Source: an uncultured Gemmatimonadota bacterium
GTDB taxonomy: Bacteria; SM23-81; DAOVCL01
Assembly (NCBI GenBank): GCA_964626665.1
Contig: CAZVGK010000002.1
Coordinates: 128,163-192,162 of the forward strand
Length of the DNA stretch: 64,000 nucleotides
Reading direction: 5' to 3'
The translations under genes and the position numbers were made by a program. Shown piece by piece: positions 8,861 to 28,184 of this stretch. The notes under the pieces are model-generated. The model made no database searches. It was not told where the DNA came from and saw only the letters and a list, made by a program, of their open reading frames with translations. Position 1 is the first letter of the stretch; the number at the start of each line of letters is the position of its first letter.

Positions 8861-9481
8861 ATGTTATTTAAACTTGAGCAACTTCTCCTAATGCAGGTCG
8901 GCGGCAAGGATTACCCTGTCTGGATAAAGGAGATGAAGGGGAAGGGGTTAAGGGTTAGCCCTCCGGTGGAGAGGGGGGATTGGGTGAGGGTAAGGGTAGG
9001 GGAAAAGGTGAACCTATGCCTGCTGGCTGATGAGGCCACCTTCTTCTTTCGCGCTGAGGTCTTAGATCTTCGCTACCTGGATGAAGAGTCAACCATCCTT
9101 ATCTCCTTTCCCCAGGAGTTGGCCAAGAAGGCAATTACGCGTGGTGGTTTCAGGCTCAAGGGGGAGGTGAAGGTGCGCTGTTTCCCGCAAAGGGGAGAGG
9201 TGTTGGGGACGAGTGAGGATATAAGCAACAAAGGAGCCTTGCTTGCCGGGTTCCGACGGGGGGAGATCGGAAAGGGGGAGAGGTTTAAATTGGAGATACT
9301 CCTTCCTGATAAAGAGCCCATCCCTGCCTTGGGTCAGGTGAAAAGGTTAATAGACCAAGGGGAGAATAGGGTAGCTGCGGCTATAGAGTTTTTGGTCATC
9401 ACCAAAAAGGACAGGGAGAGGCTCACCCACTACCTCTTTGAGCTCGACCGCTTACAGAGGAGGGCTAAAAGTTGCCGGTAG
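8861..9481 (+). CDS. PilZ/YcgR-type flagellar brake-like protein
   Basis: YcgR-N-like half plus RxxxR (RGGFR) and DISxxG (DISNKG). Confidence 0.85.
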   Translation: MLFKLEQLLLMQVGGKDYPVWIKEMKGKGLRVSPPVERGDWVRVRVGEKVNLCLLADEATFFFRAEVLDLRYLDEESTILISFPQELAKKAITRGGFRLKGEVKVRCFPQRGEVLGTSEDISNKGALLAGFRRGEIGKGERFKLEILLPDKEPIPALGQVKRLIDQGENRVAAAIEFLVITKKDRERLTHYLFELDRLQRRAKSCR

Positions 9482-10536: not shown

Positions 10537-10636
10537 TCGCTCGATACTGAGGGGGTTTCCACCTTTTGACCTCTTTCTCGTAAGTTAAGGGAGAGCAAAC
10601 CGTCTTTAGAACTTACAAACCAAGGGGAGGAAAACT

Positions 10637-12869: not shown

Positions 12870-14525
12870 ATGAGCAAAAAGGAGAAATTGAAGAGTTTAG
12901 TTGACCAGTTCTTAGAAGAGGCCTGGAAGGCAAACCCGGTTAAGGCTACCTCCCTGGGAATCCACAAATATGACAGTGAGTTAGGTAGTTTCAATAAGGA
13001 GGCTGTTTACGATAGGCTTAGCTCATTGAAAGGGTATGGCAGAAGGCTAAAAACCCAGATCGAGCAAGCCGATCTCGCTGCCGATGAGATCCTCGACTAT
13101 CGACTTCTGAAAAATGGAATTGATGAAGAGATACTAAATCTGGAGGTCATCAGGGATTGGGAGAGAAATCCAGGTTTCTATCTGGATTTAGCCCTTGATG
13201 GGTTGTTTTATCTCCTGGTGAGAGAATCTGTCTCCCTTCAAGAAAGGGCAGAGAACATAATATCCCGATTAGAAAAGATCCCTGAGCTCTTATCCAATGG
13301 TCAGAAAAATTTGGTCAACCCGCCGAGGGTTTTCACCCAAACGGCCATTGATGTTACCAAGGCAGGCCTAAAGTTTATCTCCACAGCTATACCTTCTTTG
13401 ACTAAAAGAACGAAGGGACTGGGGGCTCCCCTTCTGACTTCTCGGGAAAAGGCCCTGGTTGCATTTGAGAAGTATCTTAATTTCCTGGAGAATGAGCTCT
13501 ATCCCAAGGCCAGCGGCAGATTTGCCATTGGCAGGGAGGCTTTTATCTATCGCCTTAAATATGGACAAATGCTCGATTATACCCCAGAGGAGCTTTCGGA
13601 TCTGGCTCAATTCTACCTTGCAGAAACAGAAGAGAAGTTAAATGAATTAGCTAAGAAAATAGATCCCTATAAAAGCTGGCAGGAGATCTTCTTGGAGATG
13701 AAGGGAGAACACCCGGAAAGGGAGGAGGTGATCCCCTTTTATCGAGTCACGGTTAATAGAGCTCGTAGGTTCGTTATAGATGAAAATTTGGTCTCCATAC
13801 CCCAGAATGAGTGTTTAAAAATAGTTCCTACGCCGATATACCTTAGACCTACCCACCCCTACGCCGCTTACGAACCACCGGCTCCCTACGAAGCAGACCA
13901 GACAGGTTTTCTCTATGTCTCCCCGGTTGATGAAAACCTCCCTCCAGAGGAGCAAGAGGCTAAGCTTAGCTGGCCCGGAGTTTACGGAGTCGACTCTGTT
14001 GTAGCCCATGAAACTTATCCTGGGCATCATCTGCAACTTACCTTAGCCAACTCGATAAGCTCAAAGGTACGGAAGCATTTTACCACCTCACAATTTAAGG
14101 AGGGTTGGGCTCTCTATTGCGAGGAGATGATGGGAGAGCAAGGATTCTATTCCCGAAAAGCTCATATCTTTCAGTTATGGGCTCAATCTGTTAGGACGCT
14201 AAGGGTGCTTCTGGATGTGGGATTACATTGCTTTGAAATGGGGCTTTCCCAAGCAGAGGAAACCCTCAGGACTAAAGGAGTGATGGAAAGATCTGCCGCT
14301 GTCGCAGAGGTAAAACGGTATGCACTTAAGCCCACTCAACCATTGAGCTATTTAATTGGCAAATTGGAGATCTTGAAATTACGCAAGGAATATAGTAGGA
14401 AAGTTGGTAGAGGATTCAATCCAAAGGATTTCCATAGTAGATTGCTCAGTTTCGGTTCAATCCCTTTGAGATTGATTCGGGAGGGGTTAATTGGCAAGAC
14501 GGAAAGAAATATTGAAAACATCTAG
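12870..14525 (+). CDS. DUF885 family protein (putative metallopeptidase)
   Basis: HETYPGHHLQ, EGWALYCE, PTQPLSYLIG motifs. Confidence 0.9.
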   Translation: MSKKEKLKSLVDQFLEEAWKANPVKATSLGIHKYDSELGSFNKEAVYDRLSSLKGYGRRLKTQIEQADLAADEILDYRLLKNGIDEEILNLEVIRDWERNPGFYLDLALDGLFYLLVRESVSLQERAENIISRLEKIPELLSNGQKNLVNPPRVFTQTAIDVTKAGLKFISTAIPSLTKRTKGLGAPLLTSREKALVAFEKYLNFLENELYPKASGRFAIGREAFIYRLKYGQMLDYTPEELSDLAQFYLAETEEKLNELAKKIDPYKSWQEIFLEMKGEHPEREEVIPFYRVTVNRARRFVIDENLVSIPQNECLKIVPTPIYLRPTHPYAAYEPPAPYEADQTGFLYVSPVDENLPPEEQEAKLSWPGVYGVDSVVAHETYPGHHLQLTLANSISSKVRKHFTTSQFKEGWALYCEEMMGEQGFYSRKAHIFQLWAQSVRTLRVLLDVGLHCFEMGLSQAEETLRTKGVMERSAAVAEVKRYALKPTQPLSYLIGKLEILKLRKEYSRKVGRGFNPKDFHSRLLSFGSIPLRLIREGLIGKTERNIENI

Positions 14526-16048
14526 ATATTCTTGACTTCCTTTCTCTCCTTTTCCAGTTCCTTTATCCTCCTCTCTGCTGGTCCCTTTCGGTCTAAGCCG
14601 AACCTCAATCTGAGTTCTTTCATCTTCATAACTGCCTCATAGCTCACATCTACGATCTCCTCTCGGCTCATCGACTCTGTCTCATAGTTAAGCATCAGCT
14701 TCCATTCGGGACTTGTGATTGCCTCTATATGATCCTCTAAACTCCTGAAGAGAAGCCTGTAACCATACCTCTCTGGATTCTCAAAGGCTGGGCTGCCCGG
14801 GTCAATAAATGGTTCCAGTGGGGCAATTACTGGCTCTATCCTCTGGGGATACCTCTTTTTATATCTTTCCAGAAGGGTTTCTGCATAATCGATGGTCTGG
14901 TGGACCGATTTGCGGGTTTGGTGGGGCAGCCCGATCATAAAAAACAGTTGAACCTTTGCCGCCCCCGCCTTCAATGCATTTTTGATGGTCTCCTCTAAGC
15001 TCTCATTGCTGTAATTTTTCCCAAAGAACTTTCTTATTCTCTCATCGTGGGTTTCTGGGGAGAGTGAGATGACAAATCTGGGGGTGGCTGAACCTATCTT
15101 CTTGAGGAATTCCAACTTTGCTCCCCAGAAAAGCTCATACTTCACCCTGTTTTTAACCCTCTTTTTCCTGATTGCTTCAAGTAACTCCTCTGAGTTGCCC
15201 ATCCTGATGTCTCCATAAAGGACGATATCAAATGGTGAAAAGTGGCTAATGATATCCATCTCTTTGGCTATGATCTGAGGGCTTCTCTGGCCTATCTTCT
15301 TTCTTCCCAGGGCCCAATTTGATCCTCCACAAGTTACACACCTTAAGAGACAGCCTCGACAGGTGATAAGAGCGCTGGCAAATTTCATTGGCCACCTGGT
15401 TCCGGTAAGGAGGTTGCCCCTCAGGTCCCTATATTTAAATATTGATTTTAAAAGGCTTTTGTAGTTAATCATAATATGCAATTCTTCTGGCAGATAAGAG
15501 AAGGGATTGGTGTGGGTTTTGTCATTTTCCTTCCAGGTCAGATTGGGAACCCGGTGGGGAGATTTGCCGCTTTCGATACATCGCAAAAGTTCAAGTAATG
15601 GCCCTTCAGTGGAATCACCTCTGAGCACATAATCAACAAACGGATATTTGATCAAATCACGGTGATAATAGGATGCCGATAGCCCTCCGAGGATCATCGG
15701 GGTCTGGGGATGAACTCTCTTCACTATTTTGGCCACCTCCAAGCTCCCCTGGGCATGGACCAACCAGTGTAAGTCAAGGCCAAAGGCCATAGGATCAAGC
15801 CCCCTGATGAATTTCTCCACAGCGAATTTAGGATGACCCTTCATCTTAACGGCTAAGTTGACAATCCGTACGGAGAAGCCGTTTCTCTCCAAGAAATCCA
15901 TTATACTCAGGAATCCGATAGGGAAATACTCAAAGATAGGGGAACTGGCAATGGTTCCACCAATTAACCCCCAATTTGTCCTCTTCTGGCGGAAGTCATA
16001 GAGACTGGGAGGATGAAGCAAGATCAGGTGAGGCGATTTTCCTTTCAT
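14522..16048 (-). CDS. B12-binding radical SAM protein (TIGR04190/Ta0216-like)
   Basis: LILLHPPSLYDFR, DLHWLVHAQG, CxxxCxxC (CLLRCVTC); start trimmed to MKGKSP. Confidence 0.85.
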   Translation of the reverse strand: MKGKSPHLILLHPPSLYDFRQKRTNWGLIGGTIASSPIFEYFPIGFLSIMDFLERNGFSVRIVNLAVKMKGHPKFAVEKFIRGLDPMAFGLDLHWLVHAQGSLEVAKIVKRVHPQTPMILGGLSASYYHRDLIKYPFVDYVLRGDSTEGPLLELLRCIESGKSPHRVPNLTWKENDKTHTNPFSYLPEELHIMINYKSLLKSIFKYRDLRGNLLTGTRWPMKFASALITCRGCLLRCVTCGGSNWALGRKKIGQRSPQIIAKEMDIISHFSPFDIVLYGDIRMGNSEELLEAIRKKRVKNRVKYELFWGAKLEFLKKIGSATPRFVISLSPETHDERIRKFFGKNYSNESLEETIKNALKAGAAKVQLFFMIGLPHQTRKSVHQTIDYAETLLERYKKRYPQRIEPVIAPLEPFIDPGSPAFENPERYGYRLLFRSLEDHIEAITSPEWKLMLNYETESMSREEIVDVSYEAVMKMKELRLRFGLDRKGPAERRIKELEKERKEVKNI

Positions 16049-16215
16049 TGTAGCTATCCTTTCATATTCAGGGCCAAACCGAATTTCAGGGGGTATGGAG
16101 CTCCTGACGAAAGATAACCTACATTGCCATTTTGTCAAGCTCTTTGGGCTCCTTGGATCTTCAGGTAGTTAACCTTTGACATTTTGGAATTTCTCAGAGA
16201 ATTCGAAGCATCCTG

Positions 16216-16467: not shown

Positions 16468-19400
16468 CTATCGCAAGAGCAACATCTTCCTGGTGAAGAT
16501 GTAATCACCCGCCCGGATCCGGTAAAAGTAAATTCCACTGGCCAGACTTTTCCCTTTAGCACTTCTTCCATCCCAGGTGACCCTGTGGATTCCCGCCTCC
16601 TTTTGCCCATCTACCAAGGTAACTACCCTTTGACCGAGCAAATTATAAACCTCCATTTTGACATAGACGCGGTGGGAGATGCAGTATTCTATGTTAGTCG
16701 CCGAGTTGAACGGATCTGGATAATTCTGACCCAAGGAGAAAGTAATTGGCTGTTGATTCTGAGGGTGGGTTTCCACCTCCGTCTCCTCTACTACCTCGAA
16801 TACCCCATCAACCAAGGTTGGGCGATCCACAGGACTGTTGTCATAGCTGGCCAGGTCGTTAAAGTAGTATCGGGACTGGTCAAATACAACGGGGTAATCT
16901 CCCAATGGAGCATCAGGCGAGATGGTGAACACCACCTTAGCTATAGGACCAGATCCTATAGGCATTGGATAGCAGGTATCTGAACTCCAGTCCTCATAAA
17001 TGCCCAAGACATTGACCACTCCAGAATCAATTCGGACTGAAAAGATTTTAAACGAATCCGTGCGAGTGGTGCGTTCCACCCTGGTAGCAGTTAGTATTGA
17101 GCTGTCAAAGGCAATCTGGAAATCAAATGCCGCAAGCACAAAGGAGTTGACCAAGGAGACAGGTAGAACAATCCCTGTATCCCCTGGAGAGCCCGTGGCA
17201 CCTTCCACTATCAGGCTATCCTTATCGCTGGGATCACCCATCATAGCAAGGCTCCCAGAGGATTTCTCCTCCTGAGGGGGGCCGACTGAACCATTGATGA
17301 TATTCACCAGATAACAAAGGTCAGCAATAGTCCAGTAATGTCCATCTCCATTCAGATCAGAGGCAATTTCCTGCTCCTCATCTGGACAGTCATCATCGGC
17401 AATATCAATGTGTTCCTTAATATATTCTATCCAAAACACAGCATCATCAACTGTATATGCCTGCCTATCACAGTTCACATCGCTCAGGATATATGGGTAT
17501 TCGGGAATGCCATGTGCCGCCCAAAGATTCCTCATCGCCTCCGAAGCACCATATATATCAGACCAGCCCGTGCAGAATTGCCTGATGTTGTAGGGGTTGT
17601 GGTCGTTAACCTTGAATACATCCAGGACAGACCATATCGTTAAGTAGATCTCGCTAACCCCCACATCATTATTGCAGTCATCCACATCGTCATCAGAGTC
17701 ATACATATCCCACAAAAGGGCAGTTACCTGGGCCTCGATGCTGTCACCGGGAAGTGGACAGGGTTCGGTTCTGCCACTGGGACAGGGCTCACCCACCGGC
17801 ATCAGAGTGTCACAGCAGTTCTCACCGTTCATACAATAATAGAACCCCTCATTTGCCATTCTATTCAAAAATCGCGGATCATCATTAACCGCCATACTGA
17901 AGAAGTTGGCCCATCCCTCACAGTATGCACTGTTTGGATGTTGAGGCTTAGACCAATAGTGAGTTCCACCAATATGGGGAGGAATACTACTACCCCCATA
18001 CCCGAACATAACATAGTGACCATATTCATGATAGATCGCGTTCTCATCCCATTGATCCTCATCTCCGGCATCAGAACGAATCGTTATCACGCGGTCACTT
18101 AGTCTATATCCGCTCCCGTGGATTTCTGGCCCCCACTCAACCTCAACCCTATCCGGCGGTGTCCCGATGGTGGCAAAATCTCTGGCGATCCCGGTTGTCC
18201 GACAGATGTTTAGCGCCGAAGAGATATTCCAGTCCGACTCACAAGTCCAGGTTCCCCAGTCTAAAATGTCATTGTCAGGGATTAACTGGGCAACATTTTC
18301 GCAATAAACATACCTCCCCCAGACATGGTCATGATCGTCATTTACAAAGACATCAGCCGCTTCTGCCTGTGAGATAATCCAAACCTGGACGTAGCAAATG
18401 TTAACATTCTCAAATGTCCAATGGCCGGTGTTGTCGGTATAAGTCACCTCTACCTGTTCACCAGTATCACCATCAATCAACCTGATCTGAGTATTGGGAC
18501 AGACCCGGGTATCTCCTGGTTCTTTCCCATAAACATATTGGTAAATACCATGCAGAGAAAAGTTGGCGATAACCCGCACACTTCCTCCATAATAATCCTG
18601 TCCTCCGTAGGATGCCCAGATTTCTCCTGTTCCCGCAGAGCTCCCAGCGTTGAGTATGGCCTTGTGAGTAGTAAGATTCTCCTCCACGCTTCCTAAACTG
18701 GATGGCGTTACCCACCAACTATCCATATCCACCACATTCCCCCATTGATCTTCAAACCAGAATTCTACGGCGGATGGATGGTTGACAACAGCCTGGATGT
18801 CATAGCTCCCCTTGGGAGATGACTCATTCAGCTTGAGGGGTATCCCGATGCCCGGGTTCTTTTTTCTCCATAGTTCATGCGATAAGCTATCATACTCCTG
18901 CTGCAGGCTGTCCAGGAGAGCGCTGAGGCTGTCTTGGTCAACAGAGTCACAAGGAGCTATTTCCCTGCCCTTGGCATCAAGTCGCGGGGCAACATTAAGC
19001 AAGGGCGGTCCCCACCTAACCCCAGGGGGATGCCCACTTGTGTCCTTTGGCACCTTACCCTCCTCAACCTCTTTCAGCTCCTTCTTCAGTTCCTCAATCG
19101 CCTTCTTGATCATCTTAACCCTGGGGTCCGGAGCACCCTTAACCTTGATCTGGATTACTTTATCACCAAATCCAGAGACGGAATACTTTTTTTCTCCACT
19201 GGGATAATAACCCTTAACATCGAAATAACCATAGCATAGAAAGCGTTCCCTCTCGACCGGTTTAATCACAATCTCTCGTACAACAGTTTCACCCATGCCT
19301 GCAGCCCCGCTCCAAAGGGTATCCCCGCTTATGACTTCCATTCCTCCTGGTATTTTAAATCTGATAGTTGCCTTTTCTGCCACCAGTCTGCCGCCCGCTG

Positions 19401-19629
19401 AACATTCCAACCGAAGGGTTACCTCCTCATTTAAGTCGGGATTTATCTCTGTGGCAAAAAGTTTGATCTCAGGCCCTGTGCTTGAGCCTCCTATATCAGA
19501 ATAGGGAAACTTGGGATTGGTAGTGGCAGTGTCGGAATTGGAGGTCTCAGAAGTGATGATTGTAGCCAGGGTTTGCACTGACAATACCAGTGCAAACAGG
19601 ACGATCAATAAGTTTAAGACCCGTTTCAT
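16468..19629 (-). CDS. Secreted multidomain zinc metalloprotease-like protein (signal peptide, N-terminal module, HExxH domain, dockerin-like, cohesin-like, FlgD-Ig/T9SS-type C-terminal domain)
   Basis: MKRVLNL signal; YHEYGH...CEGWANF; DVNCD/DLNGDG pair; QNYPDPFN...WDG...SGIYFYR tail. Confidence 0.85.
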   Translation of the reverse strand: MKRVLNLLIVLFALVLSVQTLATIITSETSNSDTATTNPKFPYSDIGGSSTGPEIKLFATEINPDLNEEVTLRLECSAGGRLVAEKATIRFKIPGGMEVISGDTLWSGAAGMGETVVREIVIKPVERERFLCYGYFDVKGYYPSGEKKYSVSGFGDKVIQIKVKGAPDPRVKMIKKAIEELKKELKEVEEGKVPKDTSGHPPGVRWGPPLLNVAPRLDAKGREIAPCDSVDQDSLSALLDSLQQEYDSLSHELWRKKNPGIGIPLKLNESSPKGSYDIQAVVNHPSAVEFWFEDQWGNVVDMDSWWVTPSSLGSVEENLTTHKAILNAGSSAGTGEIWASYGGQDYYGGSVRVIANFSLHGIYQYVYGKEPGDTRVCPNTQIRLIDGDTGEQVEVTYTDNTGHWTFENVNICYVQVWIISQAEAADVFVNDDHDHVWGRYVYCENVAQLIPDNDILDWGTWTCESDWNISSALNICRTTGIARDFATIGTPPDRVEVEWGPEIHGSGYRLSDRVITIRSDAGDEDQWDENAIYHEYGHYVMFGYGGSSIPPHIGGTHYWSKPQHPNSAYCEGWANFFSMAVNDDPRFLNRMANEGFYYCMNGENCCDTLMPVGEPCPSGRTEPCPLPGDSIEAQVTALLWDMYDSDDDVDDCNNDVGVSEIYLTIWSVLDVFKVNDHNPYNIRQFCTGWSDIYGASEAMRNLWAAHGIPEYPYILSDVNCDRQAYTVDDAVFWIEYIKEHIDIADDDCPDEEQEIASDLNGDGHYWTIADLCYLVNIINGSVGPPQEEKSSGSLAMMGDPSDKDSLIVEGATGSPGDTGIVLPVSLVNSFVLAAFDFQIAFDSSILTATRVERTTRTDSFKIFSVRIDSGVVNVLGIYEDWSSDTCYPMPIGSGPIAKVVFTISPDAPLGDYPVVFDQSRYYFNDLASYDNSPVDRPTLVDGVFEVVEETEVETHPQNQQPITFSLGQNYPDPFNSATNIEYCISHRVYVKMEVYNLLGQRVVTLVDGQKEAGIHRVTWDGRSAKGKSLASGIYFYRIRAGDYIFTRKMLLLR

Positions 19630-19649
19630 TTCAAACACCTCTTTCCTTT

Positions 19650-19712
19650 CTAAAAGGTTAACAACCCTGGATACCCTGATTGAGCATCCGCTACCTCCTT
19701 GAGCTTCTCCAT
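19650..19712 (-). CDS. 20-aa upstream ORF MEKLKEVADAQSGYPGLLTF (copy 1)
   Basis: AAAGGAGG RBS and ATG; frame and length conserved in three copies. Confidence 0.45.
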   Translation of the reverse strand: MEKLKEVADAQSGYPGLLTF

Positions 19713-19851
19713 CCACACCTCCTTTCAATTGAGAGTTTAAGGTTTACTTTTCCTTTTGATTTACAAACCAGATAATTACAAAGTGTTCTTATAGTTGCTC
19801 TATCTATGAAGCTCTTCTCTTAAAAATACAGGATATTTATTGATGTTCTCT

Positions 19852-20706
19852 TTAAGATTTAAGGAACTGTGTTCTTTTGACTTTACCCTCTCCTACCGCC
19901 TGGAGATCATAGCTCCCCTTGGGAGATGACTCATTAAGCTTGAGGGGTATCCCGATGCCCGGGTTCTTCTTCCTGTATAGTTCATGCGATAAGCTATCAT
20001 ACTCCTGCTGCAAGCTATCCAGGATAGCTCTCAAGCTATCAGGGATAAGAGTATCAGCGGGGACTACTTCCACTCCGCTGGGGGTAAGCTTTGGAGCGCC
20101 AAATAAGGGCTCGACAATTCTAAACCCAGGGGGATGCCCACTTGTGTCCTTTGGCACCTTACCCTCCTCAACCTCCTTCAGCTCCTTCTTCAACTCCTCA
20201 ATCGCCTTTTTGATCATCTTTATCCTGGGATCCGGTGTGCCTTTAACAATAAAATCTAGTGAGCGACACTCTGCAAGTCCCCGCTTTCCTTCTGAAAAGA
20301 CAAATCCCCCAAAGATCCGGAAACGCCGTCTTTGGGTTGGTTTTACCACGAGTTCTCTAACTGCCTTTCCCCCCTTCTCCATATTAACTGTCCAAACAGT
20401 GTCATTGCTTACAACTTCAACCCACGAAGGAATCCTGTAAAACAGAATAGTTGAGTTTGGGGCATTAATAAGAGGGCTGCATTCGAGTCTAAAAGTAATT
20501 AGCTCATTAAGATCAACCTCCATTTTCGCTCTATCTGCAGAAAGCTTAATTTGTACTGGGGCCACCTGCATTTCACCGCCACCACTATCTACATAAACAA
20601 ACTCGGTTTGGCTCTTTTTCTCCGTTGAAATCCCATCAAGTGCCAGGGTAGCCTGCACTGGAAAAAACAGTACTACCAATATGATTACCACCAAGACCCG
20701 TTTCAT
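19852..20706 (-). CDS. Secreted protein, stand-alone paralogue of the protease N-terminal module
   Basis: Signal peptide; shares PDPR.K..KKAIEELKKE...KDTSGHPPG...LDSLQQEYDSL...KLNESSPKGSYD with the gene at 19629. Confidence 0.8.
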   Translation of the reverse strand: MKRVLVVIILVVLFFPVQATLALDGISTEKKSQTEFVYVDSGGGEMQVAPVQIKLSADRAKMEVDLNELITFRLECSPLINAPNSTILFYRIPSWVEVVSNDTVWTVNMEKGGKAVRELVVKPTQRRRFRIFGGFVFSEGKRGLAECRSLDFIVKGTPDPRIKMIKKAIEELKKELKEVEEGKVPKDTSGHPPGFRIVEPLFGAPKLTPSGVEVVPADTLIPDSLRAILDSLQQEYDSLSHELYRKKNPGIGIPLKLNESSPKGSYDLQAVGEGKVKRTQFLKS

Positions 20707-20726
20707 CTTAAACACCTCTTTCCTTT

Positions 20727-20789
20727 CTAAAAGGTTAACAACCCTGGATACCCTGATTGAGCATCCGCTACCTCCTTGAGCTTCTCCAT
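20727..20789 (-). CDS. 20-aa upstream ORF (copy 2)
   Basis: Identical to 19650-19712. Confidence 0.45.
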   Translation of the reverse strand: MEKLKEVADAQSGYPGLLTF

Positions 20790-20928
20790 CCACACCTCCT
20801 TTCAATTGAGAGTTTAAGGTTTACTTTTCCTTTTGATTTACAAACCAGATAATTACAAAGTGTTCTTATAGTTGCTCTATCTATGAAGCTCTTCTCTTAA
20901 AAATACAGGATATTTATTGATGTTCTCT

Positions 20929-21816
20929 TTAAGATTTAAGGAACTGTGTTCTTTTGACTTTACCCTCTCCTACCGCCTGGAGATCATAGCTCCCCTTGGG
21001 AGATGACTCATTAAGCTTGAGGGGTATCCCGATGCCCGGGTTCTTCTTCCTGTATAGTTCATGCGATAAGCTATCATACTCCTGCTGCAAGCTATCCAGG
21101 ATAGCTCTCAAGCTATCAGGGATAAGAGTATCAGCGGGGACTACTTCCACTCCGCTGGGGGTAAGCTTTGGAGCGCCAAATAAGGGCTCGACAATTCTAA
21201 ACCCAGGGGGATGCCCACTTGTGTCCTTTGGCACCTTACCCTCCTCAACCTCCTTCAGCTCCTTCTTCAGCTTCTCAATCGCCTTTTTGAGCATCTTCAC
21301 CCTGGGGTCTGGAGCGCCCTTAACCTTGATCTGGATTCCCTTATCACCAAATCCAGAGACGGAATACTTCTTGCCTCCATTAACATAATAACCCTTAACA
21401 TCGAAATAACCATAGCAGAGAAAGCGTTCCCTCTTGACCGGTTTAATCACGATCTCTTGCACAACAGTTTCATCCCTGGCTACAGCCCCGCTCCAAAGGG
21501 TATCCCCGCTTATGACTTCCATTCCTCCTGGTATTTTGAATCTGATAGTTGCCTTTTCTGCCTCCACTCTACCACCAGGTGAACATTCTAATCGAAGGGT
21601 TATCACCTCATTTAAGTCGGGATTTATCTCTGTGGCAAAAAGCTTGATCCTCGGCCCTGTGCTCGAGCCCCACTTAGCAGAATAGGGAAACTTGGGATTG
21701 GTAGTGGTAGTATAAGACTTGGTGGATGTGGACTTAGATGTGTCCACTGTAGCCATAGCTTGCACTAAGAATACCAGTGCAACGAGGACAATCAATAAGC
21801 CTAAAATCCGTTTCAT
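20929..21816 (-). CDS. Secreted protein, second stand-alone paralogue (mosaic)
   Basis: N-half resembles the gene at 19629; C-half identical to the gene at 20706. Confidence 0.8.
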   Translation of the reverse strand: MKRILGLLIVLVALVFLVQAMATVDTSKSTSTKSYTTTTNPKFPYSAKWGSSTGPRIKLFATEINPDLNEVITLRLECSPGGRVEAEKATIRFKIPGGMEVISGDTLWSGAVARDETVVQEIVIKPVKRERFLCYGYFDVKGYYVNGGKKYSVSGFGDKGIQIKVKGAPDPRVKMLKKAIEKLKKELKEVEEGKVPKDTSGHPPGFRIVEPLFGAPKLTPSGVEVVPADTLIPDSLRAILDSLQQEYDSLSHELYRKKNPGIGIPLKLNESSPKGSYDLQAVGEGKVKRTQFLKS

Positions 21817-21836
21817 CTTAAAAACCTCTTTTCTTT

Positions 21837-21899
21837 CTAAAAGGTTAACAGCCCTGGATACTCAAATTGAGTATCCGCTACCCTCCTGAGTTTCTCCAT
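21837..21899 (-). CDS. 20-aa upstream ORF MEKLRRVADTQFEYPGLLTF (copy 3)
   Basis: AAAGGAGG RBS; diverged but same length and frame. Confidence 0.45.
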   Translation of the reverse strand: MEKLRRVADTQFEYPGLLTF

Positions 21900-22017
21900 C
21901 TGCACCTCCTTTCAGTTGGGTTTCCCCCCATACAGCACCGCCTTCCTATATCTAAGCATCAAAAATGGGATTAGTCAAGATGTTTCCAAGCACTGGGAAT
22001 ATAGATAGTATAATCCA

Positions 22018-22179
22018 CTACCAATCATCCAAGTCCTTCCATTTCCCTTCCTCTGAGGCCCTCCTCTCTAGTGCATTGGAGATAAGCCTTTTGATCTTTT
22101 GCCAAAGGCTTTTCTTGGAGGGTTTCTCCTGGTCAAGCTCTAACTTTGGTTTCGGCTTTATCTTAGGATCAGAATTCAT
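22018..22179 (-). CDS. Small basic hypothetical protein (53 aa)
   Basis: ATG at 22179; AGGAGG rather far upstream; no recognisable family. Confidence 0.35.
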   Translation of the reverse strand: MNSDPKIKPKPKLELDQEKPSKKSLWQKIKRLISNALERRASEEGKWKDLDDW

Positions 22180-22241
22180 AGTGAATGTAAGACTCCTCCT
22201 ACAACAAAAGGTGGAAGGTGTATGGTTAAAAGTAATAGGGG

Positions 22242-22416
22242 ACCTGGCGGGTCCCAGACCCCTCAATGAGACCCACCAGGTTGTTGAGACAATGCGAGGG
22301 CAAACCGGAATTCTGCGTGACCAAGCTCATCCGAGGGCACTCCACCTCACAATAGCTCCCCCCTGGGATATAAGGAGGCTATTGGGTCACCTCTACCCTG
22401 CCCTCGCTTGCCTCTT
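22242..22416 (-). ncRNA. Candidate structured non-coding element, copy 2, with extra 3' hairpin
   Basis: Same stems as copy 1 plus ACCUGGUGGGUCUC/GGGACCCGCCAGGU hairpin. Confidence 0.5.
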
Positions 22417-22903
22417 GGTGACAGTTCACCACGGAACCTCACAGGAAAAAAGCAATTAAGAATTAAAAATGAAATTTTCCTGTGCTGGTAGGATGGGAAA
22501 CCCTTAGGGCTGGAAAATGGAAATTTAGTCTGAGCTGGTAGGTGCTCTCATCTGACAGTACCACCACCGAGCCGTCAGAACCCCGATTCTGACGGCAAAG
22601 GTAGATGGCAGAATCAGGGTTTTGCCACCTCATAATCTAACCGCAAAGACGCAAAGAACGCAGAGTTTAACGATCTACGAACTACAATCCTCTTATTCGT
22701 GAAGATTCGTCCATTCGTGCCATTCGTGTTCCTTATTGGAAGGGGTGGCAGGCAAGGGAGAGCCTACGGGGCATCTCCGCTATTTTATGTTTCCCAAAAT
22801 GCTGCTTCCAACCACCAAGCAAGAACAAGGCAGCATCGACCCTCTCCTTGCCCGCCTTTTAAGCCACGGACATAAGCGGAGACATTTACATTTTTATTCA
22901 TGT

Positions 22904-22919
22904 AGCAAAAAGTGTGCCT
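22904..22919 (-). promoter_or_regulatory. sigma54 -24/-12 promoter facing the secreted-protein cluster
   Basis: Minus strand AGGCACACTTTTTGCT, GG-N10-GC. Confidence 0.75.
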
Positions 22920-23033
22920 GAATTGGCCGAAAAAATAAAAAAGCACTTAGCGAACTAAGTGCCTCAAAAACATAGAGATATTCAACTTGTGAAAAGATGG
23001 TTATATCAACTCTTATTAAAACAAAAGCCTATT

Positions 23034-23136
23034 CGTCCATTTTTGGACATCATTTTTTGGGCTTACAGAATATCTGTTTATTTAACAAATAGTTAGGAGC
23101 GACCAAAAAAGAACGCTATTTGACCAAATTTGGACA
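23034..23136. promoter_or_regulatory. Two palindromic UAS-like sites (CGTCCATTTTTGGACA 23034-23049; TGACCAAATTTGGACA 23121-23136)
   Basis: Related 16-bp dyads about 115-215 bp upstream of the -24 box. Confidence 0.6.
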
Positions 23137-23153
23137 CTCATCCAATAGAATCC

Positions 23154-26099
23154 TCACTCGCCTTCGGTATAAATATTGAGCTTTTTCATTTTGTTGTGTA
23201 AGGTAGTGCGTGGAACTCCCAACATGTTTGCCGCTTCAGTAATCTTCCAATTGCTCTTTTCCAAAGCCGTTAAGCACTCCTCTCTCTCCATCAAAGCTAT
23301 CTTCTCAGGAAGGGAACCCCCCTTTGGTGGAAGAACAGATGCTCTTTTCTTGCCAATCTCCACCAGAGATGGTGTTATTATATCCCCATCTGCCAAGGTT
23401 ACAGCCCTGCGGATCAGGTTCTTCACTTCCCGCACATTTCCTGGAAAATCATACTCCATCAGCTTCTCCATGGCCTCTGGGGTCATAATCTTCTTGTGGT
23501 GATTCTCTCGGTTAAATCTCTCCAGAAAATAGTTCACTAATAAAGGCATATCCCCTTTCCTCTGGCGTAAGGGAGGAAGCTCTATGGGAAAACAGTTCAA
23601 CCTGTAGAAAACATCCTCTCTGAATCTCCCTGCATTCACTTCAGCTTGCAAATCCTTGTTGGTGGCTGCAATTACCCTTACATCCACTTTTCTCCACCTG
23701 TTATCACCTCTCCTCTGCATCTCTCCTTCCTCCAATATCCGCAAGAGCTTTACCTGAAGATCAGGCTTCAAAGTGGAGATTTCATCTAAGAAGATACTTC
23801 CCCCATTTGCCTCCTCAAATTTCCCCCTCCGCTCCTGAGTGGCCCCGGTAAAGGCTCCCTTGATATGGCCAAACAGTTCATCCTCTAGCAGTGACTCCGT
23901 TATGCTTGCACAATCCACCGTAACAAATGGCCCCAAAGCCCTCTGGCTGCTATAATGAATCAGCTTGGCTATCAGCTCCTTGCCAGTCCCAGATTTCCCG
24001 GTTAGCAATACCCCCTCCAGCGCGTCTTTTATCTTTTCTACTACCCTGAGAACCTCCTTCATCTTTTTGTCATCGGTTATCAGCCGGGAAAATCCATAGC
24101 TGTCCGCTATCTGATAAGCTTTCAAAACCAGGTTCTCAGCCTCCAAGCCCTCTACCCTTAGCTCGTCAACTACCCTGTGTATATGCTCAGATGCCGCTAC
24201 AAAGAATTGCACATCCTCCTGCCTCCACCCTCCCCGATCAGGCTTTTGGGCCAGATACAGTATCCCATCCAGCCTCTCCTTTAACCCCAGGGGCATAACC
24301 AACAGGGCCCCCACCTTAAGGGAGGAGAACTTCCCATCGGCAGAGAGCTTCACTGTAAGCCTCCCAGGTTCAAAGGAATTGGTAGCCAAAAGATGCAGTA
24401 CCTTCTCAGCTTCTTCCTCCCTCAACTTCACTCTCTCCGCTACCTTTAGACCATCGGTCTCCCTGTAGGCAACAAAGCCCTGATCTGCCCCCACCCTCTC
24501 GGCAATGGTATGAAGGAGGCTTTTTAAATGATTCCTCAACCCAGCCTCAGATGTGGGCTTGAAGGATAGCTCCTTAAGAAGCAGGTAGGGGTTCTCCTCG
24601 GAGTCGGTGGCGCTATCAAGCCGGCTCTCCACCTGAGAGCGGAGCCTTGCCGTCACTTTCAGAGCCTCTTTCTCACCCAACAGAGTCTCAGCTTCGGCTA
24701 TGAAATTTAAAACCTCATCGGAATGGGAGAAGAGGAGCTCAACCCGGGCCATCTCCAGCTTAGCCAAACCACGGTAGTGTCCACATCCAGGCCCCATATC
24801 AGAGAACAAACGATCAGCCTCCTGGAGGAGCTCCAGCCCCCGTTCCCTTTCTTTGAGTGCGGAGGCGGTGAATCTGCCCTGTTCCAATAATGTCCTGCCT
24901 AGTTCGAACCTGTCCTCTATGGACTCCAGAACCCTAACCGCTTTCTGAAAACTTTCCTTGGCTCCATCTAGGTTGCCCTGAGCCTCAAAGATAAGAGCCT
25001 GCACTCTGTAACAACAACCCTCTTCAAACTTATCCCCTAAAGATTGAGAGATCCTGAGGGCTTCTTGAACACATTCTGAGGCTTCATCAAGGCCTTTTCC
25101 CTCAGCTAAGAAAAGCTCTGCCCTTCTCCTCTGCACCTGGTTTATCAAATCCTTCTGCCCCAGCCTTCTCCCTATGTCCAATGTCCTCTGGTAGCAGTCC
25201 CTGGCAAGCCCAAGATCTCCTCTCTCCTTGGCCACATCTGCCAGGGATTCAAGAGACATCGCTTCAGCCCTTTCATAACTGTGGGCTTGACTTAAAGCTA
25301 AGGATTTTTTCAGCAATTCTTCTGAGCCGCCAAGGTCTCTTTGGAGAGCCTTCAGACGTCCAAGGGATATATATCCATGAGCTAAATGAATTGGATCGCT
25401 CATTTTTTTCTTAATCTTAAGACTCCGATTTAAGTAATCCTCTGCCTTTGCCCACCTCCCCGTTTTCCGGTAAAGCATTCCTATATTATTCAAGATAAGG
25501 GCTTCATTCCGCTTGTTTTCCCTTTTTTGAGCAATGCTTAAGCCCTCTTTTAAATTGACAAGAGCCTGTTTATAATCAGAGGTGGCGAAGTCTACATTGG
25601 CAAGGTAGTTATAGACAATCAACATCTCCATTTCATCATCTGCACGACGGAACGTGGATAGGCTATCCTGGAGGAATTTCCTTCCCCGCAAATAATCGCC
25701 CAACTGAGCAAATGCTCGGCCAATGAATTTCTGACAGAGCCCTACAATTTTATGCTGGGCTGTCCCTTTGTAGGATTCATAAATCTTCATGCTGAGATCC
25801 TTGGCCTCTTCATCCCTCCCCATCTCCAGTAATACCCTGGTGAGAAGCAGCCGTGTTCTGGCCAATTCTATCTCATCTCCCAACCGAGCAAAGCTCTCTT
25901 CTGCTTCCCTCGCCTCTTTGAGGGCTGAGTTCAAGTCTCCACTTCTCAGATAACAATAGGCCAACTCCCCCTTAATCTTTGCCTTCTCTTTAGGCTTTGC
26001 CTTCTTAAGGGCCTTTTCGTAAAGCCCTATCGCCTGGGAGAACTTCCCAGAGTCTATGTAATTGGTAGCTGACTTAAGCAGATTCTCAAAGCTATCCAT
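23154..26099 (-). CDS. TPR-repeat / GAF-like / AAA+ sigma54 activator with Fis HTH
   Basis: About 490 aa of TPR-like repeats; GKSGTGKE; GAFTGA; FPGNVRE; LGVPRTTL HTH; no receiver domain. Confidence 0.93.
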   Translation of the reverse strand: MDSFENLLKSATNYIDSGKFSQAIGLYEKALKKAKPKEKAKIKGELAYCYLRSGDLNSALKEAREAEESFARLGDEIELARTRLLLTRVLLEMGRDEEAKDLSMKIYESYKGTAQHKIVGLCQKFIGRAFAQLGDYLRGRKFLQDSLSTFRRADDEMEMLIVYNYLANVDFATSDYKQALVNLKEGLSIAQKRENKRNEALILNNIGMLYRKTGRWAKAEDYLNRSLKIKKKMSDPIHLAHGYISLGRLKALQRDLGGSEELLKKSLALSQAHSYERAEAMSLESLADVAKERGDLGLARDCYQRTLDIGRRLGQKDLINQVQRRRAELFLAEGKGLDEASECVQEALRISQSLGDKFEEGCCYRVQALIFEAQGNLDGAKESFQKAVRVLESIEDRFELGRTLLEQGRFTASALKERERGLELLQEADRLFSDMGPGCGHYRGLAKLEMARVELLFSHSDEVLNFIAEAETLLGEKEALKVTARLRSQVESRLDSATDSEENPYLLLKELSFKPTSEAGLRNHLKSLLHTIAERVGADQGFVAYRETDGLKVAERVKLREEEAEKVLHLLATNSFEPGRLTVKLSADGKFSSLKVGALLVMPLGLKERLDGILYLAQKPDRGGWRQEDVQFFVAASEHIHRVVDELRVEGLEAENLVLKAYQIADSYGFSRLITDDKKMKEVLRVVEKIKDALEGVLLTGKSGTGKELIAKLIHYSSQRALGPFVTVDCASITESLLEDELFGHIKGAFTGATQERRGKFEEANGGSIFLDEISTLKPDLQVKLLRILEEGEMQRRGDNRWRKVDVRVIAATNKDLQAEVNAGRFREDVFYRLNCFPIELPPLRQRKGDMPLLVNYFLERFNRENHHKKIMTPEAMEKLMEYDFPGNVREVKNLIRRAVTLADGDIITPSLVEIGKKRASVLPPKGGSLPEKIALMEREECLTALEKSNWKITEAANMLGVPRTTLHNKMKKLNIYTEGE

Positions 26100-26114
26100 T
26101 ATCTCCCTTTAGAT

Positions 26115-26468
26115 CTATTTGTTGAAGATCATCTGCCAGAGAAAGAGAAGCTTTAGTTTCCAGTTGAGGAATGAATCCCTGTTCTTGGTGGTATTTTGGC
26201 GCTCCCTCTGATAACTGCTTGTCTGAGTCGAACTGCTAAGGGAATGTTTAGTTACAGAATGGTTGGCAGGATCAGATGTTGCCTGGTTGTCTCCTCCCGC
26301 TGATCCTGAACCACCTTTACCTGAATGATACTCCCAATCCCACGGCTCGGCGGCCATAAGCATCCGTCTCTCTTCTTCACTGGCAGATGCCTTTCTCACC
26401 GGCAAAAAGCTAACTATGGAAAGAAGAAAGGCTATAGTCAATAGGATAATACCCAACTTTTTCATCAT
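26115..26468 (-). CDS. Small secreted pro-peptide-like protein
   Basis: Sec signal ending ASA, AEPWDWEYH core, Gly/Ser-rich linker, hydrophobic C-terminal helix; 15 nt upstream of the TPR activator. Confidence 0.75.
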   Translation of the reverse strand: MMKKLGIILLTIAFLLSIVSFLPVRKASASEEERRMLMAAEPWDWEYHSGKGGSGSAGGDNQATSDPANHSVTKHSLSSSTQTSSYQRERQNTTKNRDSFLNWKLKLLFLWQMIFNK

Positions 26469-26517
26469 CAATCACCTCACAGGGGAAATGTTTCCCAGCA
26501 GATTCAAATCAAAACCA

Positions 26518-26546
26518 AATATAACAATCTCAGCCCCCAAAGTCAA
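26518..26546 (-). promoter_or_regulatory. sigma70 promoter for the peptide-activator operon
   Basis: TTGACT-17 nt-TATATT with TGn extended -10. Confidence 0.65.
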
Positions 26547-26930
26547 GGATTTTTTTGAAGGTAACCTGCGTTTGAGGGAGCTTTTGTGTTCTATTGACTG
26601 GGAGCTAAGTTCCATAAATATCCTCGTTTACCCGGACTGTAGGAGTTGATGGGTAGGATTTTGTGTGTAATCCAGGTTAATATCTTCCTCAATGGGATTA
26701 CCGATTCCTTAGATATAATCAGCGGGTAAAAGAGGAACCTGAAATACCTTCTCCGGCTAGTTAGGACATAACTTCTTGATTCATAAAAAGAAAAAGGCAA
26801 TCATTTTCAATTTTAAAAAAAACTTAAAAATAAAACTTGACTTTTAAGCCCCTGTTGAGTTAATATAAGGCTTAATTCTGTGAAAAGAGTTAAGGACAAA
26901 ACCAGAAGCTAAGTAGAAAGGAGGAGAAAG

Positions 26931-28184
26931 TTGAAAGCCAACCTGCGTTTCGATTTCCGGGATGTCTTTAAGTCAGCCAGATTTGGATTGGCCGGAAAGA
27001 AGGTTTGGGTGCAGTTCTGCGGCATTCTCTTTGGCTATATTGTCTATCTTATTTTCAATTATATCGCCTTTCTTTCCAAGGGGATGAATATTGGGGAGAT
27101 TTGGAAATTATTTGGGCTCTTCCCCCTTCCCTTCTTGGGATTCCCTTGGTTTGGTTGGGTGATATTTGGAGTGGGCGCGGCCATAGCGCTAGCTATTTGG
27201 CTTTTGGCCTCCAGCGCTGTGGCCAAGATAACCTATCAGGAGTTGAAGGGTGACGATTTTTACTCCGTAAGCGATTCCCTTGGCTTTGTCAAGAAAAATT
27301 GGAAGCCTGTTCTCCTCTCTCCCCTAACCCTGATAGGTATGATCGTTTTCTTCCTGGCTGTGGGGGCGCTGATTGGACTCATAGCCAAGGTTATTCCCTA
27401 TGTGGGGGAGATTGCCTTCTCCCTGATCTTTGGCATCCCCATAGTGGGGGCTGCCGTATTTACCGTTTTTATGGCCGTAATTTTTCTCTTCTCCCTAATT
27501 TTGGGTCCGGCCATTGTGGCCACTACTGGGGAGGATACCTTCGAAACGGTCATCCAGCTCTTCTCTACCATTTGGAATCAACCCTGGAGGCTGGTTGTTT
27601 ACCAGATTGTCCTTAAGTTCACCGAATTTTTGGCAGTGGGCGTGATGGCCTGGTTTACTGTAAAGGGACTGAGGGTCATCCGTCTCGTTATGGGTTGGTC
27701 TATGGGGGTTAAACTTGATAAGCTTCTTGGCTCGGCAGCGGGACTTTTACCCAAATTCCACTTTCCGATTTTGGGTGAGTCCCAGCTCCTTCCCCATTTC
27801 TCCACCCTCTGGGCCAATTTGGGCAATCCCGGCCCTATGGTCTGGACGATGGATGTTGCTGGCATCATCATCGGAATTACCCTCATCTTAATTGGCTTCT
27901 TTATTTTTGCCTATGGTGGAGCAATACTTAATGCTGGGCAGACCCTCATCTATATCATTTTAAGGTTGAAGAAAGATGAAGAGAACCTCTTAGAGAGGAA
28001 GGAAGAAGAGGAAGAGGAGACGTTTCCAGAGGAAGAAGGGGGGAAAAAGGAAGAGGAGGAAAAGGTAGAGGGCAAAGAGGAGGCAAAGGAGCCAAAGAAG
28101 ACGGAAGGGGAGAAGAAACCGAAGAAAGAAGAGGAAGAAAAGCCAAAGAAGGAGGGGAAAAAGAAAGAAGGGGAGAAGAAGTAA
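26931..28184 (+). CDS. Integral membrane protein with Glu/Lys-rich C-terminal tail
   Basis: Several hydrophobic helices, AAAGGAGG RBS; family not recognised. Confidence 0.8.
   Translation: MKANLRFDFRDVFKSARFGLAGKKVWVQFCGILFGYIVYLIFNYIAFLSKGMNIGEIWKLFGLFPLPFLGFPWFGWVIFGVGAAIALAIWLLASSAVAKITYQELKGDDFYSVSDSLGFVKKNWKPVLLSPLTLIGMIVFFLAVGALIGLIAKVIPYVGEIAFSLIFGIPIVGAAVFTVFMAVIFLFSLILGPAIVATTGEDTFETVIQLFSTIWNQPWRLVVYQIVLKFTEFLAVGVMAWFTVKGLRVIRLVMGWSMGVKLDKLLGSAAGLLPKFHFPILGESQLLPHFSTLWANLGNPGPMVWTMDVAGIIIGITLILIGFFIFAYGGAILNAGQTLIYIILRLKKDEENLLERKEEEEEETFPEEEGGKKEEEEKVEGKEEAKEPKKTEGEKKPKKEEEEKPKKEGKKKEGEKK

Follow-up and report, generated by a model that had tools for sequence, protein, structure and literature searches.

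A conserved gene pair of a predicted exported Trp-acidic protein and a sigma-54 activator with a tetratricopeptide repeat sensor

The reading of peptide signals inside the cell by tetratricopeptide repeat (TPR) proteins is regarded as a speciality of the Bacillota and of their phages. Activators of sigma-54-dependent transcription take their inputs from receiver, GAF, PAS, V4R (in XylR and DmpR) and similar domains, or from separate small partner proteins that control the enhancer-binding protein, such as HrpV and PspA, the latter being the partner of PspF. The RRNPP(A) peptide-pheromone pairs, as described in part of PMC9765709, include Rap-Phr, NprR-NprX, PlcR-PapR, PrgX, Rgg-SHP and AimR-AimP, and belong to Bacillota with their phages and plasmids. 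Here we describe a two-gene cassette that unites a pairing of the peptide/TPR type with sigma-54 activation, and that occurs in uncultured diderm lineages of at least two phyla. It lies in a stretch of 64,000 nucleotides (nt) from an uncultured Gemmatimonadota bacterium (contig CAZVGK010000002.1, positions 128,163 to 192,162; hereafter the window), whose genome (G000; 3.17 Mb, 99.65% complete) was compared with those of two other species of the genus (G001 and G002). The first gene, for a small protein with a signal-peptide-like start and a Pro-Trp-acidic motif, abuts a second gene for a 981-residue activator in which a long TPR region precedes the AAA+ domain.

Similar to RRNPP systems, the cassette places a cytoplasmic TPR receptor beside a small gene for what would be a Sec-exported pro-peptide (export, in this instance, being predicted from the translation), many diverging paralogous pairs occur per genome, and some cassettes adjoin genes for secreted proteases. 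In contrast with the XRE-type helix-turn-helix (HTH) or phosphatase output of the RRNPP group, the output of the cassette is an AAA+ sigma-54 module with a C-terminal Fis-type HTH. The TPR region also differs, with 12 repeats of the TPR_12/MalT-like type, and the host is a diderm outside the Bacillota without an OppA-type match, whereas RRNPP peptides are re-imported through Opp. Given these differences in output domain and in Opp, the system is RRNPP-like in layout and stands outside the RRNPP family. A sequence-only reading of the locus had proposed RRNPP logic coupled to sigma-54 in a probably non-Firmicute host; the layout of a TPR protein beside a small exported-protein gene was upheld, as was the host, through its type IX secretion system (T9SS) cargo and diderm character.

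The activator resembles the enhancer-binding proteins NifA, NorR and FhlA, which carry GAF domains, in its AAA+ GAFTGA motif, its HTH_8 domain, a GAF-like region ahead of the AAA+ domain, and upstream activating sequence (UAS) dyads combined with a -24/-12 promoter. It differs from the known members of that group in that a long TPR solenoid serves as its main sensor and that an exported partner has a gene dedicated to it. MalT likewise couples a superhelical repeat sensor to an ATPase that must oligomerise; unlike the cassette, it combines a STAND NTPase with a LuxR HTH, works with sigma-70, responds to maltotriose and lacks a gene for an exported partner. As far as our literature search shows, a sensor-partner arrangement of this kind on a sigma-54 activator is undescribed so far: no TPR-bearing enhancer-binding protein with an exported partner was found in the literature covered, the supplementary candidate lists of RRNPP_detector, possibly with non-Bacillota hits, lying outside that coverage.

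Linkage of the two genes in two phyla

The host genome encodes five further activators of like architecture, one of which is truncated at the end of its contig, and a paralogue of the small open reading frame (ORF) lies directly upstream, on the same strand, of each activator (6/6). In the two other species, where the coordinates of activators that matched over the whole N-terminus were compared with those of the small ORFs, the two genes adjoin in 4/4 (G001) and 13/13 (G002) cases, giving 23/23 for the genus. Of the 24 matches to the small ORF in the genus, a single one is an orphan, a truncated copy (L078, G001:C164:6644-6805) that retains the first 55 residues within an open frame of 65, with no activator detected beside it. 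A profile of the small protein matched none of four sister-family genomes, and a search of contigs with one very specific peptide pattern returned 15 loci in close relatives, a result that is uninformative on the wider distribution.

The pairing extends to a second phylum. Of 34 sampled genomes from other phyla one, G025, has a 984-residue TPR-AAA+-HTH activator, and the ORF upstream of the activator encodes 124 residues in which a signal peptide is followed by GEHPWDGD. In the phylum of G025, a match to the N-terminal 620 residues (E <= 1e-20) was obtained in 249 of the 285 genomes. Linkage was scored in the 30 best loci, which belong to one family (29 with upstream sequence), and in 24 loci from ten genomes of ten other families. 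A signal-peptide ORF lies upstream in 29/29 loci of the first set, with a predicted mature N-terminus of (G/S)E(N/H)PWD(A/S)D in 23, AEHAWDAD in three and AEGPFDVD in three. In the second set such an ORF precedes the activator in 22 of the 23 loci with enough sequence, the region upstream of L138 being too short, and 21 of these 22 ORFs have a Trp beside acidic or amide residues (DHPWD, EHPWQ, GDPWDD, GHTWDE and similar). The gap between small ORF and activator ranges from -44 to about +130 nt, with many overlaps, and the loci examined show no further conserved gene alongside the pair. These counts, which bear out the proposal that homologous activators would consistently follow a signal-peptide ORF with a PW core, indicate that the pairing is a conserved and non-accidental cassette, kept one-to-one through duplication and in two phyla.

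The alignments point to a single conserved element in the small protein, Pro-Trp with acidic residues, the remainder being variable. In the copy from the window, MMKK and a hydrophobic core running to ASA (residues 1-29) are followed by SEEERRMLMAAEPWDWEYH, a Gly/Ser/Thr-rich linker, a basic stretch and a final NWKLKLLFLWQMIFNK. The signal-peptide-like layout is common to all aligned homologues and suggests that the protein is exported. P42 and W43 are invariant across 15 genus sequences, and P, W and D are the sole invariant columns past the start in an alignment of 20 diverse small proteins from the other phylum. Trp is flanked by Asp or Glu both here (AEPWDWE) and in homologues (E(N/H)PWD(A/S)D, DHPWD, GDDGGWEE), and the residues right after PW differ among paralogues (DWEYH, HWWYH, DEYYH, DDIYN, HNDLY and SDGGW). 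A single cut would suffice to release the motif, which mostly stands at one end of the mature protein; three paralogues from one other-phylum genome have it at the extreme C-terminus (GDDGGW[ED][ED]). Among 7790 mechanically called ORFs of 60-170 residues in the host genome, 252 have a signal-peptide-like start, and nine of these carry PW[DEQHSN] at residues 23-75; six of the nine are the ORFs that precede the six TPR activators.

The small-protein family has 73 members in a collection of 5.8 billion proteins, none of them named and none with a Pfam family, and the protein itself matched no family in Pfam or NCBIfam. In the ESM Atlas its best feature score was 0.80 (lead level 0.9), and its own model had a predicted local distance difference test score (pLDDT) of 0.60 and a predicted template modelling score (pTM) of 0.22. 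The sequence-only reading had described a signal peptide, a short aromatic core, a Gly/Ser linker and a hydrophobic tail. The first three are recognizable, the first as a signal-peptide-like start, but the tail contains Lys, Arg and Gln, and its C-terminal segment (with K, K, Q and N) appears amphipathic, with no clear transmembrane helix. A type I transmembrane anchor with a cytoplasmic tail touching the TPR domain was rejected as a general model, because the genus protein ends at the hydrophobic segment with its basic residues before it, and because in many homologues the second hydrophobic element lacks the length or the apolar character of an anchor.

The partner gene starts 15 nt past the stop of the small ORF, preceded by the ribosome-binding site AAGGGAG, and its product has the hallmarks of a bona fide sigma-54 activator: an AAA+ domain with GAFTGA, an HTH, adjoining UAS dyads and promoter, and sigma-54 in the host. 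Pfam assigns TPR families to residues ~1-470 (TPR_12, E 1e-36; TPR_MalT, E 2e-25), a weak GAF to 525-640 (E 5e-5), Sigma54_activat (PF00158) to 673-840 (E 2.9e-64), and then AAA_lid_14 and HTH_8 (935-974); a receiver domain is absent from these assignments, and the GAFTGA motif is intact in the translation. ORF and Pfam data thus agree with the domain order and 15-nt spacing read from the sequence at the outset. NCBIfam models matched the AAA+ part only, below threshold (NifA, AtoC, NorR and others), and the host rpoN was located through PF04552 (G000:C12:37065-37535, E 2.3e-56). In three paralogous activators of the same genome (contigs C41, C15 and C12; loci L002, L004 and L005) GSFTNA replaces GAFTGA, and GAFTDA, GAYTGA and GTFTGA occur elsewhere in the genus.

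The TPR groove and the modular make-up of the cassette

A model of activator residues 1-500, based on a 60-sequence alignment, comprises 25 helices in about 12 TPR-like repeats (mean pLDDT 95.6, pTM 0.90). In the 60 homologues a ladder of polar residues is conserved with a period of about 40 residues, at an equivalent place on successive A helices: N164 (55/60), N205 (60/60), S245 (48/60), E284 (56/60) and R324 (55/60). R277 (58/60) and Q321 (51/60) are conserved nearby, and R365 joins N164, N205, R277 and R324 among the conserved, periodic A-helix residues. Peptide-binding TPR domains carry a comparable ladder, and helix periodicity and TPR geometry suggest that the one found here faces the concave groove.

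The fold was compared with 48,161 PDB representatives. An APC subunit and APPBP2 (Z 29.7 each) and MalT domain III (Z 27.8; root-mean-square deviation 3.4 over 358 aligned residues) were matched, as were LGN (26.2), phage phi105 Rap with its peptide (25.9), NprR-NprX (24.6), Pins (24.5), RapI (22.6), AimR (22.0), PlcR-PapR (19.1) and the bacterial kinesin light chain-like protein BtubC (18.2). RRNPP receptors fall at Z 19-26, with APC subunits, MalT, LGN and OGT equal or higher; such values are common for repeat proteins, and the model would thus point to a solenoid of the peptide-binding kind with no specific RRNPP kinship. By sequence the nearest PDB entries are LGN/GPSM2 (E 3e-11), Pins and kinesin light chains (KLC1, E 6e-9), and the 41 hits that the TPR region gave in this sequence search include no RRNPP chain.

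Kinesin light chain offers a parallel for the motif as well as for the groove. Part of PMC6214655 describes a concave TPR groove that binds TNLEWDDSAI of SKIP, in which Trp, within a disordered stretch, is flanked by Asp or Glu, and also the Tyr-acidic C-terminus of JIP1 (PTEDIYLE); Asn pairs hold the main chain of the ligand, and Arg or Lys its acidic groups. Compared by eye, the cassette motifs AEPWDWEYH, EAEPWDDIYN and ENPWDADGG are of this W-acidic kind, and the TPR region of the activator has conserved Asn and Arg on successive A helices. Unlike the cassette, kinesin light chain and LGN are eukaryotic cytoskeletal adaptors with no transcription output, and in the cassette motif a Pro precedes the Trp.

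Comparison of cassettes suggests that signal and sensor behave as one unit, and HTH and promoter as another. The cassette in the window and its G002 orthologue are 68% identical in the small protein, 74% in the TPR-GAF part, 61% in the AAA+ domain and 34% in the C-terminal part; the corresponding values against a G001 cassette (G001:C20) are 27, 34, 53 and 66%, and the dyad, terminator and promoter of the latter are nearly letter-identical to those of the window. Over the 55 pairs of 11 cassettes, identity of the small protein correlates with that of the TPR-GAF part with r 0.77, of the AAA+ domain with r 0.29, and of the C-terminal/HTH part with r 0.42, a pattern that alone is no proof of interaction, as the small gene lies right against the sensor-encoding end of its neighbour. 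The activators are recombinant mosaics, among them the copy in the window (23154-24083). Its HTH end, dyads, terminator and promoter match those of the G001:C20 cassette (L038), to which its sensor is 34% identical, and its sensor matches that of a G002:C104 cassette (L017), to which its HTH end is 34% identical.

How the motif could act on the activator

We favour, with a probability of about 0.55, an explanation in which the small protein is the cognate input partner of the activator, its motif occupies the TPR groove, and re-entry is the likeliest way for it to get there. The sigma-70 promoter would drive a translationally linked pair, the exported small protein and a cytoplasmic activator with its 12-repeat TPR solenoid and GAF-like region, and a terminator would end the pair. 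The activator would bind the two downstream dyads and fire the -24/-12 promoter, yielding a structured RNA and then, by probable read-through, the 53-residue ORF and the genes for secreted and T9SS proteins. The Pro-Trp-acidic segment would lie extended in the conserved polar groove and switch the AAA+ ring on or off. Since the motif would be made outside the cytoplasm, its release by a protease and re-entry, perhaps through an OPT transporter, appears the most likely route, which would amount to RRNPP logic with a sigma-54 output.

The components of this explanation differ in strength. We think it probable that the TPR module has the small protein as its functional input partner; for the PW-acidic segment as the ligand of that module the chances are somewhat better than even; and that this segment acts after re-import is tentative, with the odds against it. 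Re-entry is nonetheless ranked first among the options, ahead of binding of the precursor before export, of an extracytoplasmic role with a relay, and of a SecM-like monitor. It is favoured by the location of the motif, usually at an end of the mature protein, by the diversification of the paralogues, and by the fact that some targets are proteases.

It should be emphasized, however, that several observations weigh against this explanation. The central difficulty concerns topology: in this diderm the receptor sits in the cytoplasm and the motif, by prediction, outside it. A search of the 99.65% complete genome for OppA-type proteins (PF00496) gave none, although 11 of 14 control genomes had a match; the genome does encode one OPT-family transporter. 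At 95-135 residues the small proteins keep, besides a linker and a basic tail, a second element of hydrophobic or amphipathic character, all of which would be superfluous for a mere pro-peptide. The placement of the polar ladder on the concave face derives from helix periodicity rather than from measurement on the model, and the TPR fold is no closer to RRNPP receptors such as Rap, NprR and AimR than to the unrelated MalT, LGN and APC subunits. The co-variation of small protein and sensor is confounded by gene order: with the small gene immediately ahead of the activator gene, a crossover anywhere within the latter would yield the r 0.77 pattern. Finally, L118 has no small ORF (1/23), and the small ORF of L128 has no Trp.

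It could be argued that the motif never needs to return, because the TPR domain would hold that of the unexported precursor, and export by Sec would free or starve the activator. Such a switch would report export capacity or secretion load, by a logic analogous to that of FlgM/sigma-28 or ExsE but through Sec, and would constitute a new kind of secretion monitor. The proximity of the motif to the signal peptide (0-15 residues in most homologues), the translational linkage and frequent overlap of the two genes, and the secreted or envelope nature of the targets are all consistent with it, and dispensing with a re-import route accords with the lack of an OppA match. One shared export machine, however, would hardly call for 6 to 13 paralogues with diverging motif flanks, the motif is far C-terminal in three paralogues, and no gating of Sec export is known; we regard this alternative as improbable.

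An equally low probability attaches to a role confined to the outside of the cytoplasm, in which the small protein would be an envelope or surface component, or a periplasmic sensor relayed by a membrane protein, and the TPR domain would bind another ligand. The family-wide retention of the signal peptide, of a second amphipathic or hydrophobic element and of the basic tail would suit such a protein, and ligands of other kinds can be accepted by GAF as well as TPR domains; MalT domain III ranks among the best structural matches. A relay, however, is at odds with the lack of a third conserved gene beside the pair in the loci examined; the one-to-one linkage survives duplication and spans two phyla, and the sole conserved feature is a short linear motif of the kind that binds TPR grooves.

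A translational monitor of the SecM, MifM or VemP type, in which the state of export would act through stalling at the end of the small ORF on translation of the activator, is very unlikely because the C-termini are not conserved: an exported small ORF does end 15 nt before the regulated gene, with overlaps elsewhere, and the genus C-terminus is Trp/Lys/Phe-rich and conserved within subgroups, but across the family the C-termini diverge (in the other phylum the hydrophobic element is followed by a variable stretch of 15-50 residues), the conserved element is N-terminal with no C-terminal arrest sequence, and the downstream gene encodes a transcription activator and no export factor.

Returning to the explanation by re-entry, its most general form is speculative, and we hold it with less than even confidence: diderms of the Fibrobacteres-Chlorobi-Bacteroidetes (FCB) group may possess peptide signalling of their own, in which an exported pro-protein gives rise to a Pro-Trp-acidic peptide read by a kinesin light chain-like TPR domain on a sigma-54 activator, an independent invention of the RRNPP principle outside the Bacillota. 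Each genome would then hold 6-13 insulated channels that differ from one another in motif flank, sensor, DNA site and target, the targets being small RNAs, T9SS proteases or envelope enzymes. If the peptide were freed by proteases under its own control, the result could be a self-reporting loop of extracellular proteolysis or a kin-specific quorum signal. The expansion of the cassette within the genus, to parallel channels beside secreted proteases and small RNAs, bears on the ways in which gene-encoded peptides could serve as signals inside bacteria with two membranes, and on the regulation of T9SS cargo genes outside the Bacteroidota.

Promoters, downstream RNA and target genes

The bicistron and its downstream elements all lie on the minus strand of the window (Table 1). 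The sigma70-type promoter ahead of the small gene, proposed from the sequence alone, ranks first among eight sigma70-like sites in 21700-27000 (mean of 5.1 in shuffled sequence). The two UAS-like dyads and the -24/-12 promoter were likewise found where they had been placed. The UAS-like elements are direct repeats of 32 nt, 87 nt apart, each with a TGTCC-N6-GGnC dyad, and a near-identical copy of the proximal one is present in the G001:C20 cassette.

Table 1. Features of the cassette and of its downstream region (window coordinates)
Feature	Position	Strand	Basis or remark
sigma70-type promoter, TTGACT-17-TATATT with extended -10 TG	26518..26546	-	scores 10/12
Small exported-protein gene (predicted), 117 residues from ATG (118 from TTG), stop included	26115..26468	-	ORF list
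Signal-peptide-like segment, residues 1-29, MMKK + hydrophobic core + ASA	26382..26468	-	read from translation
Core AAEPWDWEYH, residues 39-48, P42 and W43 invariant	26325..26354	-	homologue alignments
C-terminal basic/aromatic segment, probably amphipathic, residues 99-117	26118..26174	-	translation and alignment
sigma-54 activator gene, 981 residues	23154..26099	-	ORF and Pfam
Activator, TPR region	24690-26099	-	Pfam and model
Activator, GAF-like region	24180-24527	-	Pfam
Activator, AAA+ with lid	23364-24083	-	Pfam
Activator, HTH_8	23178-23297	-	Pfam
Distal UAS-like repeat, dyad TGTCC-N6-GGTCA (minus strand)	23105..23136	.	75% identical to proximal copy
Proximal UAS-like repeat, dyad TGTCC-N6-GGACG (minus strand)	23018..23049	.	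~135 nt upstream of -12 element
Intrinsic-terminator-like hairpin, 11 pairs + T run, closing bicistron	22940..22965	-	sequence scan
-24/-12 sigma-54 promoter AGGCACACTTTTTGCT, GG-N10-GC	22904..22919	-	pattern match
Conserved, putatively structured RNA element directly downstream of sigma-54 promoter	22745..22890	-	10 loci aligned
53-residue charged ORF ending DLDDW, first ORF past sigma-54 promoter	22018..22179	-	paralogue matches
Three paralogous secreted proteins	20929-21816, 19852-20706, 16468-19629 (whole 16468..21816)	-	ORF and Pfam

A search for TGGCAY-N5-TTGCW with at most one mismatch gave 126 matches on both strands of the host genome. One such match stands 170-300 nt past the activator stop, on the same strand, in 5/5 paralogous loci of the host; a sigma-54 promoter is present in four of the five loci examined in genus-mates, the fifth having TTGT at -12, and the order of hairpin and then promoter is repeated in four related loci. 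In the other phylum the short paralogues (720-800 residues) have a promoter 210-286 nt past the stop in 10 or 11 cases, and the ~980-residue orthologues in the family of G025 have no such promoter and are followed by an LplA-like gene.

Directly past the sigma-54 promoter lies a conserved RNA element (~22890-22745; mean identity 67% over 10 aligned loci), for which RNAalifold proposes a long outer helix, an inner hairpin and a slot for an insert like a repetitive extragenic palindrome (REP) hairpin, carried by some copies; with 2 compensatory changes among 35 predicted pairs, the structure is weakly supported. The element shares CCGTGGCTT with a paralogous locus (L002:1095-1262, minus strand). 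Rfam gave no family at gathering score in the whole window, and chance-level matches only in 21700-23300 and in L002:1000-1300. Cassettes of the C41 type have, at the equivalent position, an RNA of ~100 nt with a clean intrinsic terminator (z -3.3) and no same-strand gene behind it, so that some cassettes seem to control a small RNA only. A terminator is found 110-145 nt past the promoter in 3/6 other-phylum loci with enough sequence. A check for RNA sequencing runs yielded none, the 24 coded runs all being DNA. In the window no strong terminator follows the RNA element, and transcription from the sigma-54 promoter probably reads through into the 53-residue ORF and the secreted-protein genes. 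The sequence-only reading had the promoter facing a protease cluster; its first conserved product is instead the RNA element, although some paralogous cassettes do precede C25 or M4 proteases.

The possibility that the 1-kb spacer is one large non-coding RNA was rejected; it consists mostly of short hairpin repeats that occur genome-wide (126 BLAST matches across the genome for a 1368-nt query), and the cassette-specific part is limited to the first ~150 nt past the promoter. Positions 22180-22745, within the probable 5' leader, look like a mosaic of REP or bacterial interspersed mosaic element (BIME) type, with its repeats present in dozens of genome copies. The 53-residue ORF belongs to a family of four copies in the host genome, all downstream of TPR activators, with nine matches in G002, three in G001 and none in G025, G239 or G255, and is thus genus-specific; it matched no Pfam or NCBIfam family. 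Family members end in D(P/L)(S/D)DW, an acidic Trp C-terminus that could act in feedback as a further TPR ligand, in this case a cytoplasmic one.

The three secreted proteins encoded next are paralogues, and had been described as a metalloprotease cluster. The cluster of secreted proteins stood; its assignment to metalloproteases did so only in part, as the 1053-residue member alone has an HExxH motif, together with a cohesin domain and a T9SS sorting tail. This protein matched no peptidase family in Pfam or NCBIfam, and its HExxH region (residues 330-800) gave a single PDB sequence match (E 0.7), leaving a peptidase fold unsupported by sequence; its status as a protease, for which the HExxH motif and T9SS tail are the basis, is unconfirmed. 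The two shorter paralogues matched no Pfam or NCBIfam family. A segment of ~100 nt, ~86% identical and containing the perfect palindrome GGATACTCAAATTGAGTATCC, precedes each of the three genes (19728-19852, 20805-20929 and 21816-21920), and gene and upstream region were duplicated jointly in tandem. Other cassettes are followed by genes for a C25 gingipain-like and an M4-like peptidase, both with T9SS tails, for LpxC-FabZ, FKBP and dockerin proteins, and for radical SAM proteins with ABC or MFS sets. Cassette targets thus serve mostly envelope or secreted functions.

Divergent from the cassette, a gene at 26931-28184 (plus strand) encodes a multi-pass membrane protein of 417 residues with a long Lys/Glu-rich C-terminal tail and no assigned family. 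A histidine kinase (354 residues) and a sigma-54 activator of receiver-AAA+-HTH architecture (455 residues) are encoded 11 kb away at 9472-12004 (plus strand), and the genome holds at least 11 further sigma-54 activators without TPR. Directly after the 1053-residue T9SS protein, on the same strand, lies a gene for a B12-binding radical SAM protein of 538 residues (14522-16138, minus strand); in the other phylum, L145 and L150 are two cassettes whose sigma-54 promoter is likewise followed by radical SAM genes.

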